The position numbers were made by a program, and so were the translations under genes. From a virus (lineage: Duplodnaviria; Heunggongvirae; Uroviricota; Caudoviricetes), in IMG/VR virus record IMGVR_UViG_2617270947_000017: a stretch of 8,043 bases of DNA; one strand, written 5' to 3'. The notes under the pieces are model-generated. The model was not told the DNA's origin, searched no databases, and saw nothing but the letters and a program-made list of their open reading frames with translations. Position 1 is the stretch's first letter. Every line of letters begins with the position of its first letter. Below, in pieces: positions 2,977-8,043 of this stretch.

Positions 2977-3810
2977 ATGAACATCGAAAAAAGCAGATTA
3001 ATTTCTGAGGCCGCCCCTCATCTGAACGCCTCTCTGGGCACAATTAACGGTAATGAATTTGCCGCAATTGTCCCGGTTATTCCTGGTCATATCGGTGGGC
3101 GTGAAACCAATATTGTTAGCGCAAAAGCGTTACACAAAGCGTTGGGCGTGGGAAAAGACTTCTCTACATGGATCACTGATCGCATCTCTGAATATGACTT
3201 CACCATTGGGCACGATTACTCAGTCCATAAAACTATTTCCCCAAATTTGGGGAAAAGCCCGAATAGCGCGGCTTACAGCAAGATTAAGCACTCTGGCAGA
3301 CCCGGTAAAGACTATCTGTTAAGTGTCGGAATGGCGAAAGAACTGGCAATGATCGAACGCACCGAACAGGGCCGCGCTATCCGCCGTTATTTCATCCAGT
3401 GCGAGGAAGAATTACAGCGTAGCGTGCCTGAAATCGCCGCCCGCTATCGTCGCCAGCTAAAAGCCCGTATCAGTGCCGCAAACAACTTTAAGCCGATGTG
3501 TGATGCGCTGAATATGGCCCGTGCCGAGCTGGGTAAAACGACGCAGCAGCGCCACTACAGCAACGAGAGCAACATGATCGCCCGTATCGTGCTGGGTGGC
3601 ATGACGGCGAAGCAGTGGGCGCAGGCAAATGGCATTACTGGCGAACCACGGGACAGCATGAACGCAGCACAGCTTGAACACCTCGCCTATCTCGAAAGCA
3701 CCAATATCACGTTAATTGATATGGGCATGGAATATGAGCAGCGCAAAGGAGAACTCACCCGCCTGTCGCAACGCTGGCTCGCCAAGCGTCTGGAGGCGGT
3801 CAATGTCTAA
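2977..3810 (+). CDS. Phage antirepressor-like protein (277 aa; Ant/KilAC-type motif)
   Basis: GGAG RBS 9 nt upstream of the ATG. Central motif DYLLSVGMAKELAMIERTEQGRAIRRYFIQCEEEL is one I recall from phage antirepressor (Ant/KilA-C-type) proteins. Exact domain assignment needs an HMM search. Confidence 0.7.
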   Translation: MNIEKSRLISEAAPHLNASLGTINGNEFAAIVPVIPGHIGGRETNIVSAKALHKALGVGKDFSTWITDRISEYDFTIGHDYSVHKTISPNLGKSPNSAAYSKIKHSGRPGKDYLLSVGMAKELAMIERTEQGRAIRRYFIQCEEELQRSVPEIAARYRRQLKARISAANNFKPMCDALNMARAELGKTTQQRHYSNESNMIARIVLGGMTAKQWAQANGITGEPRDSMNAAQLEHLAYLESTNITLIDMGMEYEQRKGELTRLSQRWLAKRLEAVNV

Positions 3811-3985
3811 GCCAACAGGAACACCACAACCTCAAAAACGCTACAAAGATGCCCACGGAGCACTCGTTACTGTCGAAAGCGTGTCTCACAACCGAGTGAC
3901 GTTTTATCGCGACGGGTATCAATCGCCATGCGTACAACCGCTGGCGCGTTTCATGAAGGAGTTCGCGGAGGTTAACAAATGCTAA
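3803..3985 (+). CDS. Small hypothetical protein (60 aa), coupled to the antirepressor gene; possibly DUF4222-like
   Basis: GGAGG (3792-3796) 6 nt upstream of ATG 3803; the ATG overlaps the antirepressor stop (3808-3810). Sequence MSKPTGTPQPQKRYKDAHGALVTVESVSHNRVTFYRDGYQSPCVQPLARFMKEFAEV. The longer reading from 3716 in the ORF track overlaps the upstream gene and is less likely. Confidence 0.6.
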   Translation: MSKPTGTPQPQKRYKDAHGALVTVESVSHNRVTFYRDGYQSPCVQPLARFMKEFAEVNKC

Positions 3986-5046
3986 CCGTCCAGAAGAACA
4001 CATTTTCACTGGCTGGTATGTCGCCAAAATCCAGCAATATGACAGCAAAGTCAGGTATTAATACAGCAGATACAAGCAAAATTTATCATTTGCTGGTGGT
4101 AGGAGCGGATGCCTTAACTATGTCAGAAATTACGGGCGATGAAGTTAGCGTTGAGAAGGTCAGCGGCTGCGCCAGAGAATTTCTGGTCGTAGATGACTTT
4201 CTCTGCTCGCGTAGTGACTCCACAAAAACCTTCGTCCACACGCGCGACGTTAACGAAATGAGCGCGATGTATTGTGCATCTGGTGCTTCCAATAGTGAGT
4301 TTTCGGAGTCCATAAAAAAGAGCTTGCCGTTATGCGGCAACACGGTTTATGGTTATAAGGCACCTCATAAAACGGGTGCCGGGATTGGCGTCCTGGTAAA
4401 TCGAATGGCGACATATGACGCGCCGAGCGTCTTTTTTTATGTCGTAGGTCTGACTCACCCATTTTTTGGGCGTTGGTGTATAATCCAGCGCCTTTGTCAA
4501 TCAATGGTGGCTCAGGCAGGGGCTTCTTCGGAAGCGCCGGTATCCATTCGAGCCGGTTACGCCAACCCTGTCTGGGCTACCACCAGCGAAATTGGCGTTT
4601 CCGGTGGTAGCGTTACATGCTATCGAATGGAGGCTGCCACATGCTGGCTACTACCCCTACCCAAAAACCGCAATTTATCTGGATTATCGCCGCAGTTCGC
4701 CGCGATTGCCCGACAATTACCGCCAAAATTCATCATATTGCTGCCGAGTCTGAACGCGATGCTCGCCGTTCTCTGGTGCGCGATCACGTCTGCTTTTTTG
4801 CTGGTCGTATCCGCATGGAGGTGGCTCATGATTAAAACCTACGATGTGCATATGGATCCCCTCGAACGCACAAGCCAGATCATCACACTGACAGAAGTGA
4901 TTAACGACATTCTGGTGAGCAACTCTCCCTCACGAGACGAAAGACTGAAGGCGTTACTCGCGATATTGGATCTCGCCGTTCGTGACGTTCATTTCCTGCT
5001 GGAAGGTGGCGAAATGCCAGGAAAAACGGGGGCAACCAATGAATAA
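3979..5046 (+). CDS. Uncertain: long frame-1 ORF (355 codons), probably not one protein; 5-prime part about 3979-4430 looks coding, remainder ambiguous
   Basis: GGAGG (3966-3970) 8 nt upstream of ATG 3979, which overlaps the previous stop. Codon pattern in about 4060-4420 looks coding (G-rich first positions, common codons). The same frame then passes through a hairpin plus T7 (4417-4438) and a TGTATAAT element (4477-4484), and over 4641-4828 is rich in rare codons (CTA, AGG, ATA, CGA, TTA) while frame 3 looks coding. Frames 2 and 3 carry stops at 4313, 4293/4296/4356 and 4445. Confidence 0.3.
4417..4438 (+). terminator. Candidate intrinsic terminator (5-bp GC-rich stem plus T7) inside the long frame-1 ORF
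   Basis: GACGC (4417-4421), loop GCCGA, GCGTC (4427-4431), then TTTTTTT (4432-4438). Orientation fits the + strand only. Confidence 0.4.
4479..4484 (+). promoter_or_regulatory. Candidate -10 hexamer TATAAT (with upstream GTG) for the small-ORF/primase operon
   Basis: Perfect TATAAT at 4479-4484 preceded by GTG; no good -35 at 16-18 bp spacing, which would fit an activator-dependent promoter (possibly AlpA-dependent; inference). About 155 nt upstream of the ORF starting at 4641. Confidence 0.25.
4641..4835 (+). CDS. Small hypothetical protein (64 aa), first of the coupled small-ORF chain
   Basis: GGAGG (4629-4633) 7 nt upstream of ATG 4641. Frame-3 codons are typical enterobacterial (CTG, GCC, CGC, ACC, GAT) whereas the overlapping frame 1 is rare-codon rich. 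Sequence [64 protein letters not shown]. An alternative start at 4617 is possible. Confidence 0.55.
   Translation: MLATTPTQKPQFIWIIAAVRRDCPTITAKIHHIAAESERDARRSLVRDHVCFFAGRIRMEVAHD
4828..5046 (+). CDS. Small hypothetical protein (72 aa), coupled to the upstream ORF
   Basis: GGAGG (4817-4821) 6 nt upstream of ATG 4828; the ATG overlaps the upstream TAA by 8 nt (ATGATTAA). Shares frame and stop with the long frame-1 ORF, so it could instead be the C-terminus of a longer product. Confidence 0.5.
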   Translation: MIKTYDVHMDPLERTSQIITLTEVINDILVSNSPSRDERLKALLAILDLAVRDVHFLLEGGEMPGKTGATNE

Positions 5047-5233
5047 CTCAATTAATACCCCTCGCCTTACGTCCGCACTTCAATTAATCGAGCAAGCAGC
5101 GGCTGTCCTGGTTGCTGTCAGTCTTTCGGCTGAAGAAATGGACGCTGCTGATGTCGTGGATGCGATTAAAGCGTGCTCATCTTTGGTTAACGATGCCCGT
5201 GCCGAGCTGGTAATTCTTGGGGGTGAAAAATGA
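5039..5233 (+). CDS. Small hypothetical protein (64 aa)
   Basis: GGGGG (5028-5032) 6 nt upstream of ATG 5039; overlaps the previous stop by 8 nt. The ORF track's longer start at 4982 would overlap the upstream gene by about 65 nt and lacks an RBS. Sequence [40 protein letters not shown]... Confidence 0.55.
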   Translation: MNNSINTPRLTSALQLIEQAAAVLVAVSLSAEEMDAADVVDAIKACSSLVNDARAELVILGGEK

Positions 5234-5493
5234 ATATCAACTTAATTTATCGTCATCCGTGTGAGCTGGAAATTGAATCATTGCTGGGGCGCGAAGAGCC
5301 ATATCCAGACACATTCACTCCCGCAGATTGCGCGACTGAACGGCTTACCAGAGCGCGCACAGGTCTGGTTCATGTGATGAATGAGATTGTTCCCTCGGTG
5401 GGAGGGGAACAGGCGACAGTAATCAATAGCTGGCTACAAAAAGTTACCTCCCTGATAGATATCGGTTTAATCGATGTGGAGAGTGCGAAATGA
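5230..5493 (+). CDS. Small hypothetical protein (87 aa)
   Basis: ATGA start/stop overlap with the upstream ORF (5230-5233); GGGGG 6-10 nt upstream; coding-like codon usage. Confidence 0.65.
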   Translation: MNINLIYRHPCELEIESLLGREEPYPDTFTPADCATERLTRARTGLVHVMNEIVPSVGGEQATVINSWLQKVTSLIDIGLIDVESAK

Positions 5494-5711
5494 CCAACAT
5501 CCAGCTCATTGAAGCGCAATGTCGCATCGAACAGGTTCAGACTGTTTTAGGGTTCTGGCTTGAAAGGGCCAGCCCCAGCAACAGAGACAAGTTAATGATT
5601 GGCGCGGTTATGTCACTGCTCAATGGCGTACCAGAAGCTATTCAGGAAGCGGACGAATTGTTGGGCAAATATGAGTTACAGAATCATTCAGGCGAGGCGA
5701 AACATGAATAA
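5490..5711 (+). CDS. Small hypothetical protein (73 aa)
   Basis: ATGA overlap with the upstream ORF (5490-5493); GGAGAG upstream. Confidence 0.65.
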   Translation: MTNIQLIEAQCRIEQVQTVLGFWLERASPSNRDKLMIGAVMSLLNGVPEAIQEADELLGKYELQNHSGEAKHE

Positions 5712-6306
5712 TTTCTTAACTTTCCATGCAGAAGCAACGCCTGACGGCGTAAACATCATGCACCGCAGCAACGATGGCATGACAGAACGCGTTGAGACCG
5801 TCTCATATATTGATGCCGTAAATCGTCTGGATGCCGGGGATTATGACGATAAACCAGATGAAGGCATGTTTATACATCTCGCTATTGCCAGTGGCGGCAA
5901 CCAGGGATATTTCGATTACACATCACAGCATCACGTGATTATGTGGCGCTGGCTGATAGCAACAGCATTCATCAATGAAATGAGAAAGGAAAACGGCACC
6001 GTCAGCATTATTGATGACAGTGGCAATCATTCCGTGGTTTCTGTTTATTCCAATGGCATCGTCGCCATGCCGCTGTATCCAGTAGCAGAGCGCCTCGCTA
6101 TGGCAAACAACATTGAGGGCGCAATGATCGAGAAATATGGTGTTGATGTCGGAACAAAGAATGCCATCATTTTTTACAGCAACATGTTCGATGTCGAACA
6201 GGGAACACTCACTTCGTTTGGGCGAGAAGTGCTTGCCGATCTTCACAACAGCTTTATTGCCGAACTAAACGAAAACGGCATCCCAGAAGCACCAGTGACG
6301 CACTAA
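5704..6306 (+). CDS. Hypothetical protein (200 aa) immediately upstream of the primase
   Basis: GAGG (5693-5696) 7 nt upstream of ATG 5704; 8-nt overlap with the upstream stop. The ORF track's start at 5599 would overlap the previous gene by more than 100 nt. Stop at 6304-6306 is 12 nt before the primase start. Confidence 0.7.
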   Translation: MNNFLTFHAEATPDGVNIMHRSNDGMTERVETVSYIDAVNRLDAGDYDDKPDEGMFIHLAIASGGNQGYFDYTSQHHVIMWRWLIATAFINEMRKENGTVSIIDDSGNHSVVSVYSNGIVAMPLYPVAERLAMANNIEGAMIEKYGVDVGTKNAIIFYSNMFDVEQGTLTSFGREVLADLHNSFIAELNENGIPEAPVTH

Positions 6307-6318
6307 ACGGGGGCCAGA

Positions 6319-6882
6319 ATGCGAAACATTGATCTTATCCGTCAGGTTATCAGTGCGTCTGAAAACAACTGGCCTCATGTGCTGGGCTGCCTGAACATAA
6401 ATGTCCCTGACTCTCCGCGCCGTCATGCTCCCTGCCCTGCATGTGGGGGTAAAGATCGATTCCGGTTCGATGACAACGGGCGCGGTAGCTTCATCTGTAA
6501 TCAGTGCGGCGCTGGTGATGGGCTGGATTTAATTAAACGCGTAAATAACTGCGACACAACAGAGGCGGCGCTTCTTGCCGCTGATGTTCTGGGTATTGAT
6601 TACCGGACAACGGAAACACCAGAAGCCACCAGCCAGAAACGGGAACAACTGGAAACCGAGCGCCAGCGACGCGAACAGGAGCGCCTGAAAAGGGCAGAGA
6701 AGGACGAACAACAAAGACGGGCTACGTTTTCCCGTCAGTTTGATGACATGCGCAGAAAGGCCGTAAATGGCAAATCTGATTATCTGGTTGCGAAAGGGGT
6801 AGGTGATTTTACATTCCCCGTGTTGCCAGATGGATCTCTGTTGCTGGCGCTGGTGAACCGCCCCGGGAATCCTGGAGACTAA
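6319..6882 (+). pseudogene. Primase N-terminal fragment (P4 alpha-like zinc ribbon plus start of TOPRIM), interrupted by an IS element at about 6853/6854
   Basis: CPACGGKDRFRFDDNGRGSFICNQCG is a CxxC...CxxC primase zinc-ribbon motif; SDYLVAKGV...[15 protein letters not shown] resembles the start of a TOPRIM domain. The reading frame runs into the IS terminal repeat, so the last codons (NRPGNPGD-stop) come from IS sequence. Primases of this type are normally several hundred residues longer. Confidence 0.7.
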
Positions 6883-6907
6883 ACTCCCTGAGAAAGAGGT
6901 AAACAGG

Positions 6908-7234
6908 ATGACTAAAAATACACGTTTTTCCCCCGAGGTCCGTCAACGGGCAGTTCGTATGGTTCTGGAAAGTCAGGGCGAATATGACTCACAATGGGCG
7001 GCAATTTGTTCCATTGCCCCAAAGATTGGCTGTACGCCAGAGACTCTGCGTGTGTGGGTTCGTCAGCATGAGCGGGATACCGGGAGTGGTGATGGTGGAT
7101 TCACCACCGCTGAACGTCAGCGTCTGAAAGAGCTGGAACGTGAAAATCGTGAACTGCGCCGCAGTAACGATATCCTTCGCCAGGCTTCCGCTTATTTTGC
7201 GAAGGCGGAGTTCGACCGCCTCTGGAAAAAATAA
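6908..7234 (+). CDS. IS3-family transposase OrfA (HTH/leucine-zipper subunit), IS629-like (108 aa)
   Basis: [57 protein letters not shown]... matches my recollection of IS629/IS1203 OrfA almost residue for residue; ends [36 protein letters not shown]. Confidence 0.9.
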
Positions 7235-8043
7235 TGCCACTGCTGGATAAGCTGCGTGAGCAGTACGGGGTCGGACCGGTATGCAGTGAACTGCATATTG
7301 CCCCGTCAACGTATTACCACTGTCAGCAACAGCGACATCATCCTGATAAACGCAGTGCCCGTGCGCAGCGCGATGACTGGCTGAAGAGAGAGATACAGCG
7401 CGTATACGATGAAAATCATCAGGTGTACGGTGTGCGTAAAGTCTGGCGCCAGTTGTTACGCGAAGGTATCAGGGTGGCCAGATGTACAGTGGCGCGCCTC
7501 ATGGCGGTTATGGGACTTGCCGGTGTTCTCCGGGGTAAAAAGGTCCGTACTACCGTCAGCCGGAAAGCCGTTTCCGCAGGCGACCGCGTAAACCGTCAGT
7601 TCGTGGCAGAACGACCTGACCAGCTGTGGGTGGCTGATTTTACTTACGTCAGCACATGGCGGGGCTTCGTCTATGTGGCGTTCATCATTGATGTGTTTGC
7701 CGGATACATTGTGGGGTGGCGGGTCTCATCGTCCATGGAGACGACATTCGTGCTGGATGCACTGGAGCAGGCGTTATGGGCCCGTCGACCGTCCGGCACG
7801 GTCCATCACAGTGATAAAGGTTCTCAGTATGTATCGCTGGCCTACACACAGCGGCTTAAGGAAGCCGGATTACTGGCATCAACAGGAAGTACAGGCGACT
7901 CGTATGACAACGCGATGGCGGAGAGCATCAATGGTCTTTACAAAGCTGAGGTAATACACCGTAAGAGCTGGAAAAACCGTGCAGAAGTGGAACTGGCCAC
8001 ACTCACGTGGGTGGACTGGTATAACAATCGACGATTGCTGGAA
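7234..8043 (+). CDS. IS3-family transposase OrfB (DDE/rve catalytic subunit), IS629-like; partial, runs off the window end
   Basis: Frame-1 reading from ATG 7234 (overlapping the orfA TAA) is open to the window end (270 codons). Hand translation gives [21 protein letters not shown]...DQLWVADFTYVSTWRGFVYVAFIIDVFAGYIVGW...HSDKGSQYVSLAYTQRLKEAGLLASTGSTGDSYDNAMAESINGLYKAEVIH..., with the DDE-integrase hallmarks. Not in the ORF track because no stop lies within the window. Confidence 0.9.
   Translation, partial: MPLLDKLREQYGVGPVCSELHIAPSTYYHCQQQRHHPDKRSARAQRDDWLKREIQRVYDENHQVYGVRKVWRQLLREGIRVARCTVARLMAVMGLAGVLRGKKVRTTVSRKAVSAGDRVNRQFVAERPDQLWVADFTYVSTWRGFVYVAFIIDVFAGYIVGWRVSSSMETTFVLDALEQALWARRPSGTVHHSDKGSQYVSLAYTQRLKEAGLLASTGSTGDSYDNAMAESINGLYKAEVIHRKSWKNRAEVELATLTWVDWYNNRRLLE

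Follow-up and report, generated by a model that had tools for sequence, protein, structure and literature searches.

A clade-specific TATAAT in the loop of a covarying hairpin within the antisense-RNA immunity module of a probable P4-like satellite: a candidate promoter for the repressor RNA

What does a terminator-like hairpin do when it is closely followed by a perfect TATAAT that has no -35 element? The question arises in an 8,043-nucleotide (nt) stretch of viral DNA (Caudoviricetes, IMG/VR record IMGVR_UViG_2617270947_000017; hereafter the window, with all parts of the module on its + strand), where the hairpin GACGC-GCCGA-GCGTC with seven T residues (T7) lies at 4417-4438 and TATAAT at 4479-4484. 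The original prediction, which had described these sequences exactly as they are, read them as the end of an alpA/antirepressor transcription unit followed by an activator-dependent promoter for a unit of small open reading frames (ORFs) and primase, that is, as a place for helper sensing. Neither motif is unusual alone, since the window holds 8 terminator-like sites against 7.3 +/- 3.7 in shuffled sequences and 2 copies of TATAAT against 4.4 +/- 2.0 expected (neither count being significant by itself), and their meaning must therefore come from context and comparison. The context makes it likely that the window is an integrated P4-like or phage-inducible chromosomal island (PICI)-like satellite and that 4417-4484 is the middle part of a P4/P1-type antisense-RNA immunity module. 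The module itself is known textbook P4/P1 biology; what is new is that one clade conserves, at the nucleotide level, a perfect -10 hexamer in the loop of a covarying hairpin inside a coding frame.

The hairpin belongs to a short leader that begins upstream of it. At 4324-4353 lies a sigma-70 promoter resembling the P4 promoter PLE, with the -35 element TTGCCG (4324-4329), an 18-nt spacer and the -10 element TATGGT (4348-4353), from which a leader start at about G4360 is predicted. It aligns with TTGCCT-17-TATAGT of P4, whose -10 is annotated in X02534 (542-547 in our P4 locus, L002), and it occupies the same place as the P1 promoter P1c4/P51b. Both hexamers are kept in 25/25 loci of a gapless alignment (A1) built from loci with the same 61-nt spacer between leader terminator and antisense RNA, and -10 positions T38, A39, G42 and T43 of that alignment are invariant; by analogy, the promoter is presumably active in the window as well. 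Separately, an inverted repeat, TTGCCG-ttatg-CGGCAA (4314-4340), overlaps the -35 element and is preceded by A6, so that the minus strand reads as a terminator-like hairpin followed by a T-run; this repeat is not kept in relatives, some of which have the -35 in another hairpin.

The predicted transcript matches the Rfam family isrK (RF01394) over 4360-4437 with 67.1 bits (gathering score 50, E = 4.5e-13), full-length over model positions 1-77. This IsrK/seqA-type leader RNA (4360-4438) consists of hairpin 1 (4360-4379), hairpin 2 (4380-4395), a single-stranded target stretch and the terminator, and the centroid structure from RNAfold contains the same three hairpins. Across the 25 aligned loci, hairpin 1 is 97.7% paired with four pairs changed on both sides and hairpin 2 is 89.6% paired, and pairing in the terminator reaches 100%, including one compensatory exchange from G-C to C-G that occurs in 3 loci. 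The 3' hairpin of the isrK match is the GACGC-GCCGA-GCGTC hairpin itself (stem and loop 4417-4431, T7 4432-4438; 5-bp stem with 4 G-C pairs, 5-nt loop), which starts 57 nt downstream of the leader start and would yield a terminated RNA of 78-79 nt. Its Salmonella homologue, the terminator of IsrK, is leaky by experiment, and the RNA has its 3' ends at the U-tract (PMC4825925). The hairpin is thus very probably a real Rho-independent terminator, as originally supposed, and it is the known leader terminator of P4/P1-type RNA immunity rather than a boundary between operons: what it ends is not the alpA/antirepressor unit but the 78-79-nt leader from the conserved PLE-like promoter, which had been overlooked. 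A hairpin with a T-run was found 5' of the C4-like RNA in 105/115 distinct related viral loci, and a scan of one genome per species located the terminator motif throughout the Enterobacterales, in hosts that include Escherichia, Klebsiella, Pantoea, Erwinia, Pectobacterium, Brenneria, Xenorhabdus, Proteus, Morganella and Edwardsiella. The sequences CGACAT (4409-4414) and ATGTCG (4439-4444) flank the terminator and could act as a clamp around it in read-through transcripts; in the 25 loci this helix is 85% paired and one of its pairs shows exchanges of T-A to C-G. The clamp was rejected as an element of the module, given its weak covariation and the preference of RNAalifold for the register 4407-4410/4440-4443.

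Downstream of the terminator stands a CI/C4-type antisense RNA gene (4500-4587), which matches the Rfam family C4 (RF01695) with 79.5 bits (gathering score 45, E = 7.7e-15) over model positions 1-87 and has a long closing stem enclosing two internal hairpins. IsrK has been equated with seqA, and C4 with the CI immunity RNA (PMC3632133, PMC4825925). P4 CI and P1 C4 are both cited as products of RNase P processing (PMC5499578). When the window is aligned with the annotated P1 C4 RNA, the RNase P site is predicted at G4506, and from the ends of that RNA the mature CI-like RNA would extend over about 4506-4584. Its second loop, seqB or a' (TCCATTCGA, 4543-4551), pairs with 4401-4408 and 4623-4631, and an internal loop carries the b' site ACGCCAA (4559-4565). 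The matching targets occur on both sides of the gene. Upstream are b1 (ATTGGCGT, 4384-4391), which lies in the loop of hairpin 2 and is complementary to ACGCCAA, and a1/seqA (TCGAATGG, 4401-4408), which is complementary to the CI-like loop and ends 8 nt before the terminator stem; downstream are b2 (ATTGGCGT, 4592-4599), complementary to b', and a2/seqC (TCGAATGGA, 4623-4631), which overlaps the Shine-Dalgarno sequence GGAGG (4629-4633). The complementarity in the window amounts to 8 nt upstream and 9 nt downstream for the a site and to 7 nt on each side for the b site.

This arrangement was examined in viral loci retrieved with a pattern anchored only on the C4 core, which gave 120 loci and 115 distinct sequences. 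Among these, 31 distinct a-loops were present, with an own 8-10-nt complement upstream in 97/115 and an own 9-10-nt complement downstream in 106/115, whereas mismatched a-loops taken from other loci find a complement of only about 5 nt. The b regions, of which 22 are distinct, likewise have their own 7-nt complement upstream in 100/115 and downstream in 110/115, against about 4.7 nt for mismatched combinations. One viral contig (L017) is near-identical to the window over 4395-4635 and nevertheless carries a different, mutually matching seqA/seqB/seqC triple (TCTGAAGG/CCTTCAGA), from which it follows that specificity is modular; immunity specificity appears to be exchanged as small cassettes, and the 31 a- and 22 b-specificities represent a natural library of orthogonal antisense pairs. 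Covariation over the whole structure in the 25 loci reaches 0.322, compared with 0.134 for shuffles (0/500 reach the observed value) and at most 0.085 for slid registers, and unguided RNAalifold recovers the same helices. The 301-nt leader folds with z = -5.8, with seqA-seqB and b1-b' paired in cis and the terminator and spacer hairpin kept. Homology, RNA structures and the covariation of every pairing are direct observations on these loci.

The coding frames of the region lead to the same module. An eta-like ORF of 355 codons (3979-5046, annotated by PGAP as 'ash family protein'), whose ATG overlaps the stop of a DUF4222 ORF (3806-3985), spans the promoter, leader, terminator, TATAAT and RNA gene. 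Its Pfam match to Phage_ASH (PF10554; 105 bits) covers residues 124-232, that is, nt 4348-4674, which is the module of promoter, isrK, spacer, C4 and seqC; because the profile coincides exactly with the RNA module, the protein family is largely a translation of conserved RNA elements. The possibility that the 'ash' ORF is a spurious legacy of the old P4 cI/ash ORF was rejected, since no stop interrupts the eta-like frame between the -35 and the C4 start in 70/70 distinct loci of the 61-nt class and P4 has an equivalent eta ORF, as described in the available text of PMC10111431. Accordingly, no intergenic boundary exists at the hairpin, through which this frame reads; what stands of the proposed unit boundary is that the site is a control point gating the small-ORF/primase operon. 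The first translated gene of that operon is an Icd/Kil-like cell-division inhibitor ORF (4641-4835), with 71.7 bits to NCBIfam NF033153, 44% identity to P4 Kil (E = 4e-11) and 28% identity to P1 Icd. As in P4, seqC (4623-4631) lies over the Shine-Dalgarno sequence (4629-4633), followed by the ATG at 4641 and a primase gene downstream. The Icd-like ORF is out of frame with the eta-like ORF in the window, whereas P4 kil is nested in frame in eta. Clade-A loci (the clade of the window, defined below) have one base fewer between Shine-Dalgarno sequence and ATG (gccacATG versus gccatcATG).

From these elements, a course of events can be proposed for the window. The PLE-like promoter (4324-4353) would launch an untranslated leader at about 4360, which would expose b1 (4384-4391) and a1/seqA (4401-4408) before reaching the hairpin and its U7. 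Acting as a leaky intrinsic terminator, the hairpin would release a 78-79-nt small RNA of the IsrK/seqA type, while the read-through RNA would hold the spacer hairpin (4469-4492) and the CI/C4-type RNA (about 4506-4584), the latter presumably excised by RNase P as in P4 and P1. The two loops of the CI-like RNA would then pair with a2/seqC and b2 (4592-4631) and cover the ribosome-binding site of the Icd/Kil-like ORF (4641). In P4, by secondary accounts, such pairing blocks translation and brings about Rho-dependent termination in kil; here, it may keep the downstream replication (primase) operon silent. Because the short seqA RNA offers the same targets, it can be expected to compete for CI, as shown for Salmonella IsrK. 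Finally, transcripts of the upstream alpA operon would be translated across the region as the eta-like ORF, which in P4 overrides the termination. The available text of PMC10111431, summarising work of the Deho and Ghisotti laboratories, states that eta is translated only from the upstream late promoter and that its translation prevents termination, and that transcripts of the constitutive internal promoter are untranslated and terminate early. The Rho-dependent terminator timm of P4 (X51522 8365-8209; PMC3177188) corresponds to L002 881-1037, a range that begins at the kil ATG and ends some 40 nt short of the kil stop, and thus lies downstream of seqC and not at the leader hairpin; by analogy, the Icd/Kil-like ORF would be the equivalent site in the window. 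Promoter activity, termination, processing and the involvement of Rho are accordingly proposed here on the model of P4, P1 and IsrK.

Comparison with known systems indicates how much of the locus is shared and how much is not. Satellite P4 has homologous sequences for the promoter, the seqA leader, a hairpin of the form GACGCGCC..GCGTC plus T7, the CI RNA, seqC over the Shine-Dalgarno sequence and the Kil-like ORF, with isrK (554-631) and C4 (739-826 in L002) in the same order. Its hairpin is near-identical (GACGCGCCACGCGTC plus T7) and stands 57 nt after the start of the isrK match, which in turn begins 6 nt past the PLE -10 TATAGT; a long eta ORF (L002 434-1078) spans the module, and a replication (primase) operon follows. 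The true promoter of the controlled unit is located upstream of the hairpin. P4 differs from the window in its specificity (TTCACAGG versus TCGAATGG), in a terminator-CI spacer of about 106 nt without sequence similarity to the 61-nt spacer of the window, and in having no conserved -10 comparable to the TATAAT of the loop. The feature annotated as 'consensus -10' in X02534 (L002 728-733, TATGCC, with CATTAT just before it) was considered as its P4 equivalent and rejected, as it stands at a different distance from cI and is unconserved among P4-class loci. Phage SfV and the P1-like phage RCS47 carry the same pair of isrK and C4 in the same order. The type member of RF01394, IsrK/STnc1160 of Salmonella Gifsy-1, resembles the window in that a leaky Rho-independent terminator ends its short RNA and lets some transcripts pass into a C4-like RNA and a small ORF, and the short IsrK transcript works in trans on the read-through RNA (PMC4825925). 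The sampled lambdoid relatives share the arrangement of isrK, terminator and C4, but their spacer of about 24 nt leaves no room for a hairpin or promoter, and the module controls an antirepressor and not a replication operon. Three spacer classes can accordingly be distinguished, of about 24 nt (lambdoid), 61 nt (window) and about 106 nt (P4).

The immI region of P1/P7 (Oc4, P2c4/P51a, P1c4/P51b, a1 b1, c4, a2 b2, icd, ant) likewise encodes a two-site antisense RNA (a', b') with duplicated targets up- and downstream, the downstream target covering the icd start, and an RNase P-processed RNA (c4 RNA annotated at 344-420 of our P1 locus, L245). What sets P1 apart from the window is an operator for C1 together with a second promoter; the two promoters are located upstream of a1/b1, and none is annotated between the leader terminator and c4, the place of the TATAAT in the window. 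P51b was considered as a precedent for an internal promoter, on the assumption that it lies between a1/b1 and c4, and was dropped because the P1 annotation puts both promoters 5' of these targets. In P1, a hairpin (ACCGCA...TGCGGT) followed by ATTTTTG lies between b1 and c4 (L245 283-316); it looks like a leader terminator and is unannotated. A further organisational parallel is offered by the immunity RNAs in the 'Bro zone' of Gram-negative PICIs (Mageeney et al. 2023): the window shares with these islands int, AlpA, a gene of the AntA/Bro type and a primase, and has its isrK and C4 matches likewise between the Bro-type and replication genes. In the available text of PMC10111431, these RNAs are presented as Rfam matches only, and neither the spacer hairpin nor the clade-specific TATAAT is described in that text.

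The TATAAT falls into the part of the module that is specific to the 61-nt spacer class. Two elements mark this spacer. The first is a CACCC-A-TTTTTT motif (4456-4467), which is near-invariant in both clades of the class; it takes up positions -35 to -24 relative to TATAAT and bears no resemblance to a -35 element. The second is the spacer hairpin (4469-4492), made of GGCGTTGG (4469-4476), the loop TGTATAAT (4477-4484) and CCAGCGCC (4485-4492), which is 82.5% paired in the 25 loci with 7/8 pairs changed on both sides and is independently predicted by RNAalifold. TATAAT (4479-4484, preceded by GTG, the whole at 4476-4484) stands in the loop of this hairpin and, read as a candidate -10, predicts a start at about 4490-4492. 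The two clades of the class can be told apart by their leaders, which start with GCACC in the clade of the window (clade A, leader-promoter -10 mostly TATGGT) and with GCTGYCGC in a P4-type sister clade (-10 TATAGT or TACAGT). A second scan brought the set of clade-A spacers to 31 distinct sequences from several genera, whose loop hexamers are TATAAT in 26 and TATGAT, TATAGC, TAAAAA, GTCATT and GTCATA in one each; hosts with TATAAT include Escherichia, Klebsiella, Raoultella, Scandinavium, Erwinia and Symbiopectobacterium. Each hexamer column carries 1.45-1.79 bits and is enclosed by stem columns of mostly 0.3-1.0 bits; the clade-A stems differ and compensate, as in GCGTTGG/CCAGCGC, GCGATGCGG/CCGCGCCGC and GGCAATCGG/CCGGTGCC. 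In the sister clade, the loops are variable and T-rich (TTCTGTAT, TGCTTATA, TTTCTTTA and others) and none equals a -10, which means that a promoter at this position is not a feature of the family; the hexamer is also absent at the homologous position from P4 and from the 24-nt lambdoid type, and no P1 promoter is annotated there.

The coding frame offers a further view of this conservation. Read in the eta frame, the hexamer is xxT-ATA-ATy. The codon before ATA specifies Cys, Gly, Asp, Tyr or Val and yet ends in T in 29/31 spacers; ATA, a rare Ile codon, is in no spacer replaced by ATT or ATC, its third base being A in 30/31; and the Ile codon that follows, whose third base falls just past the end of the hexamer, has C there in 26 and T in 5. 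This third-position pattern indicates selection on the DNA or RNA sequence, not on the protein.

The simplest function of an invariant TATAAT is that of a -10 element, for which the hexamer is a candidate. The perfect hexamer contains both the A at -11 and the T at -7, and the TATGAT variant retains these two key bases. In a CI precursor transcribed from about 4490-4492, the predicted RNase P site would be preceded by a leader of 14-16 nt. The conservation thus suggests a variant of the P4/P1 architecture with its own promoter for the repressor RNA, and we tentatively propose that TATAAT is a weak -10-only promoter giving the CI-like RNA a source independent of leader read-through. The companion proposal, that in this one clade the same six bases serve three codes at once (the loop of a covarying hairpin, Ile-Ile of the eta-like protein and a -10-only sigma-70 promoter), is put forward with comparable reserve, as a possibility not far from evenly balanced. 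The idea that TATAAT is a promoter is therefore a reasonable one, supported by nucleotide-level selection within the clade; its assignment to the replication operon is not supported, as the promoter of that operon lies upstream of the equivalent hairpin in P4.

Several observations weigh against this interpretation and the module on which it builds. No usable -35 accompanies TATAAT within the 16-18 bp searched, where CACCCA or TCACCC at 17-18 bp score 2/6; the TGn of an extended -10 is lacking (-15/-14 are G, T, and most clade members have G at -14 and no T at -15), and the hexamer goes uncalled in a consensus scan for promoters. The sister clade keeps the spacer hairpin without any -10, and within clade A the hexamer has disappeared from three lineages (GTCATT, GTCATA, TAAAAA) and is changed to TATAGC in a fourth. 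P4, P1 and Salmonella obtain their CI, C4 or STnc1160 RNA by processing transcripts from upstream promoters; STnc1160 vanishes when the isrK promoter is deleted (PMC4825925), and the two annotated P1 promoters both lie upstream of a1/b1. For the module as a whole, the terminator stem is short at 5 bp, the 79-nt leader alone folds no better than shuffles (z = -0.63), and promoter use, termination efficiency and processing all rest on analogy. Related loci moreover share ancestry and are subject to horizontal transfer, so that the counts given here overstate the number of independent events. Our literature search found no transcript-start data for a member of the clade.

Among the alternatives, the one that survives best places the role of TATAAT at the level of RNA or elongation, where the UAUAAU loop would be an RNase E or other processing signal, a protein-binding loop for the release of the CI precursor, or a -10-like sigma-70 pause site in the leader transcript. 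The hexamer does stand exactly in the loop of a hairpin with compensatory changes and 22 nt 5' of the predicted RNase P site, and the sister-clade loops (TTCTGTAT, TGCTTATA, TTTCTTTA) are A/U-rich as well. General A/U-richness, however, fails to explain an exact TATAAT in 26/31 spacers, and the TATGAT survivor retains the two bases that matter most in a -10; such a loop has no known partner sequence or factor, and inspection of the leader by eye, with no formal scan made, revealed no conserved AUUAUA complement. We regard a role of this kind as possible but unlikely, and a -10-only promoter for the CI-like RNA as the better account of the hexamer.

Far less probable is the arrangement first envisaged, in which the hairpin ends the alpA/antirepressor unit and TATAAT is an AlpA- or helper-dependent promoter of the small-ORF/primase unit and the switch for helper sensing. 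Its ingredients are real: the hairpin has its T7, a perfect -10 stands without a -35, the hexamer is kept in the clade, and the region does part the alpA and antA genes from the replication genes. However, a conserved promoter lies 57 nt 5' of the hairpin, which is part of its leader; no gap separates the upstream genes from an ORF whose frame continues across the hairpin; and the sister clade, P4 and P1 run the same operon without a -10 here. A search for a conserved operator near TATAAT found none, no conserved operator-like sequence goes with the hexamer, and the inverted repeat that flanks it covaries instead of being conserved, which argues for an RNA structure and against a site bound by a protein. 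The available text of PMC10111431 has AlpA acting at the promoter of its own gene and the P4 override coming from the upstream late promoter. We found no sign here of dependence on an activator, of control by AlpA or of helper sensing; the module is the RNA-based immunity of the element itself. Equally improbable is a functionless TATAAT, inherited by accident in one lineage or present merely as Ile-Ile of the eta-like protein. One TATAAT is indeed expected by chance (2 found against 4.4), the Ile-Ile lies in a conserved frame, and the loci are related by phylogeny. Against this reading, both flanking arms of the stem vary and covary, unlike the hexamer between them; two third positions of codons and a rarely used Ile codon are among the bases it conserves, and the adjoining synonymous site outside it varies.

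If the -10-only promoter is real, the satellite would possess, unlike P4 or P1, a constitutive source of its own for the CI-type repressor RNA, free of read-through of the seqA/IsrK terminator. Repressor RNA and decoy (the seqA/IsrK RNA) would then each be made from a different promoter, with a ratio open to independent adjustment; this would bear on the satellite's choice between silence and replication and would provide a compact case of overlapping DNA, RNA and protein codes. Independently of the hexamer, recognising the module corrects annotation and explains how a widespread family silences its replication genes. A match to the region is present in 1346/5426 complete E. coli genomes. At the module in E. 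coli 042, the RefSeq feature table contains only the coding sequence of a 355-aa 'ash family protein' (5080-6147 in our locus L001), and both RNA genes and the Icd-like ORF are absent from the features listed for this stretch.

The remainder of the window is consistent in content with a satellite. It encodes a P4-type integrase (1-1254), AlpA (2330-2533), an AntA-type protein (2977-3810), the DUF4222 ORF (3806-3985) and a primase gene from 6319, and from alpA onward the ORFs abut or overlap. An IS3-family element (6856-8043) lies inside the primase gene, with transposase orfA at 6908-7234 and an ALIL frameshift pseudoknot at 7189-7305 (120.9 bits). E. coli 042 has a TOPRIM/DUF927 gene of 918 codons to which the window is homologous up to 6855, and the insertion probably makes this copy of the satellite replication-defective. 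About 700 bp with two small ORFs, located just 5' of the primase gene in E. coli 042, are missing from the window (6304-6319, compared with L001 7405-8110). The ORF at 2533-2964 gave no PADLOC match. Between int and alpA, the ORF at 1273-2223 encodes 316 aa, is low in GC (36% versus about 50% elsewhere) and gave no Pfam or PADLOC match; E. coli 042 has a non-matching sequence with a different ORF at this position, which makes it a variable cargo slot.

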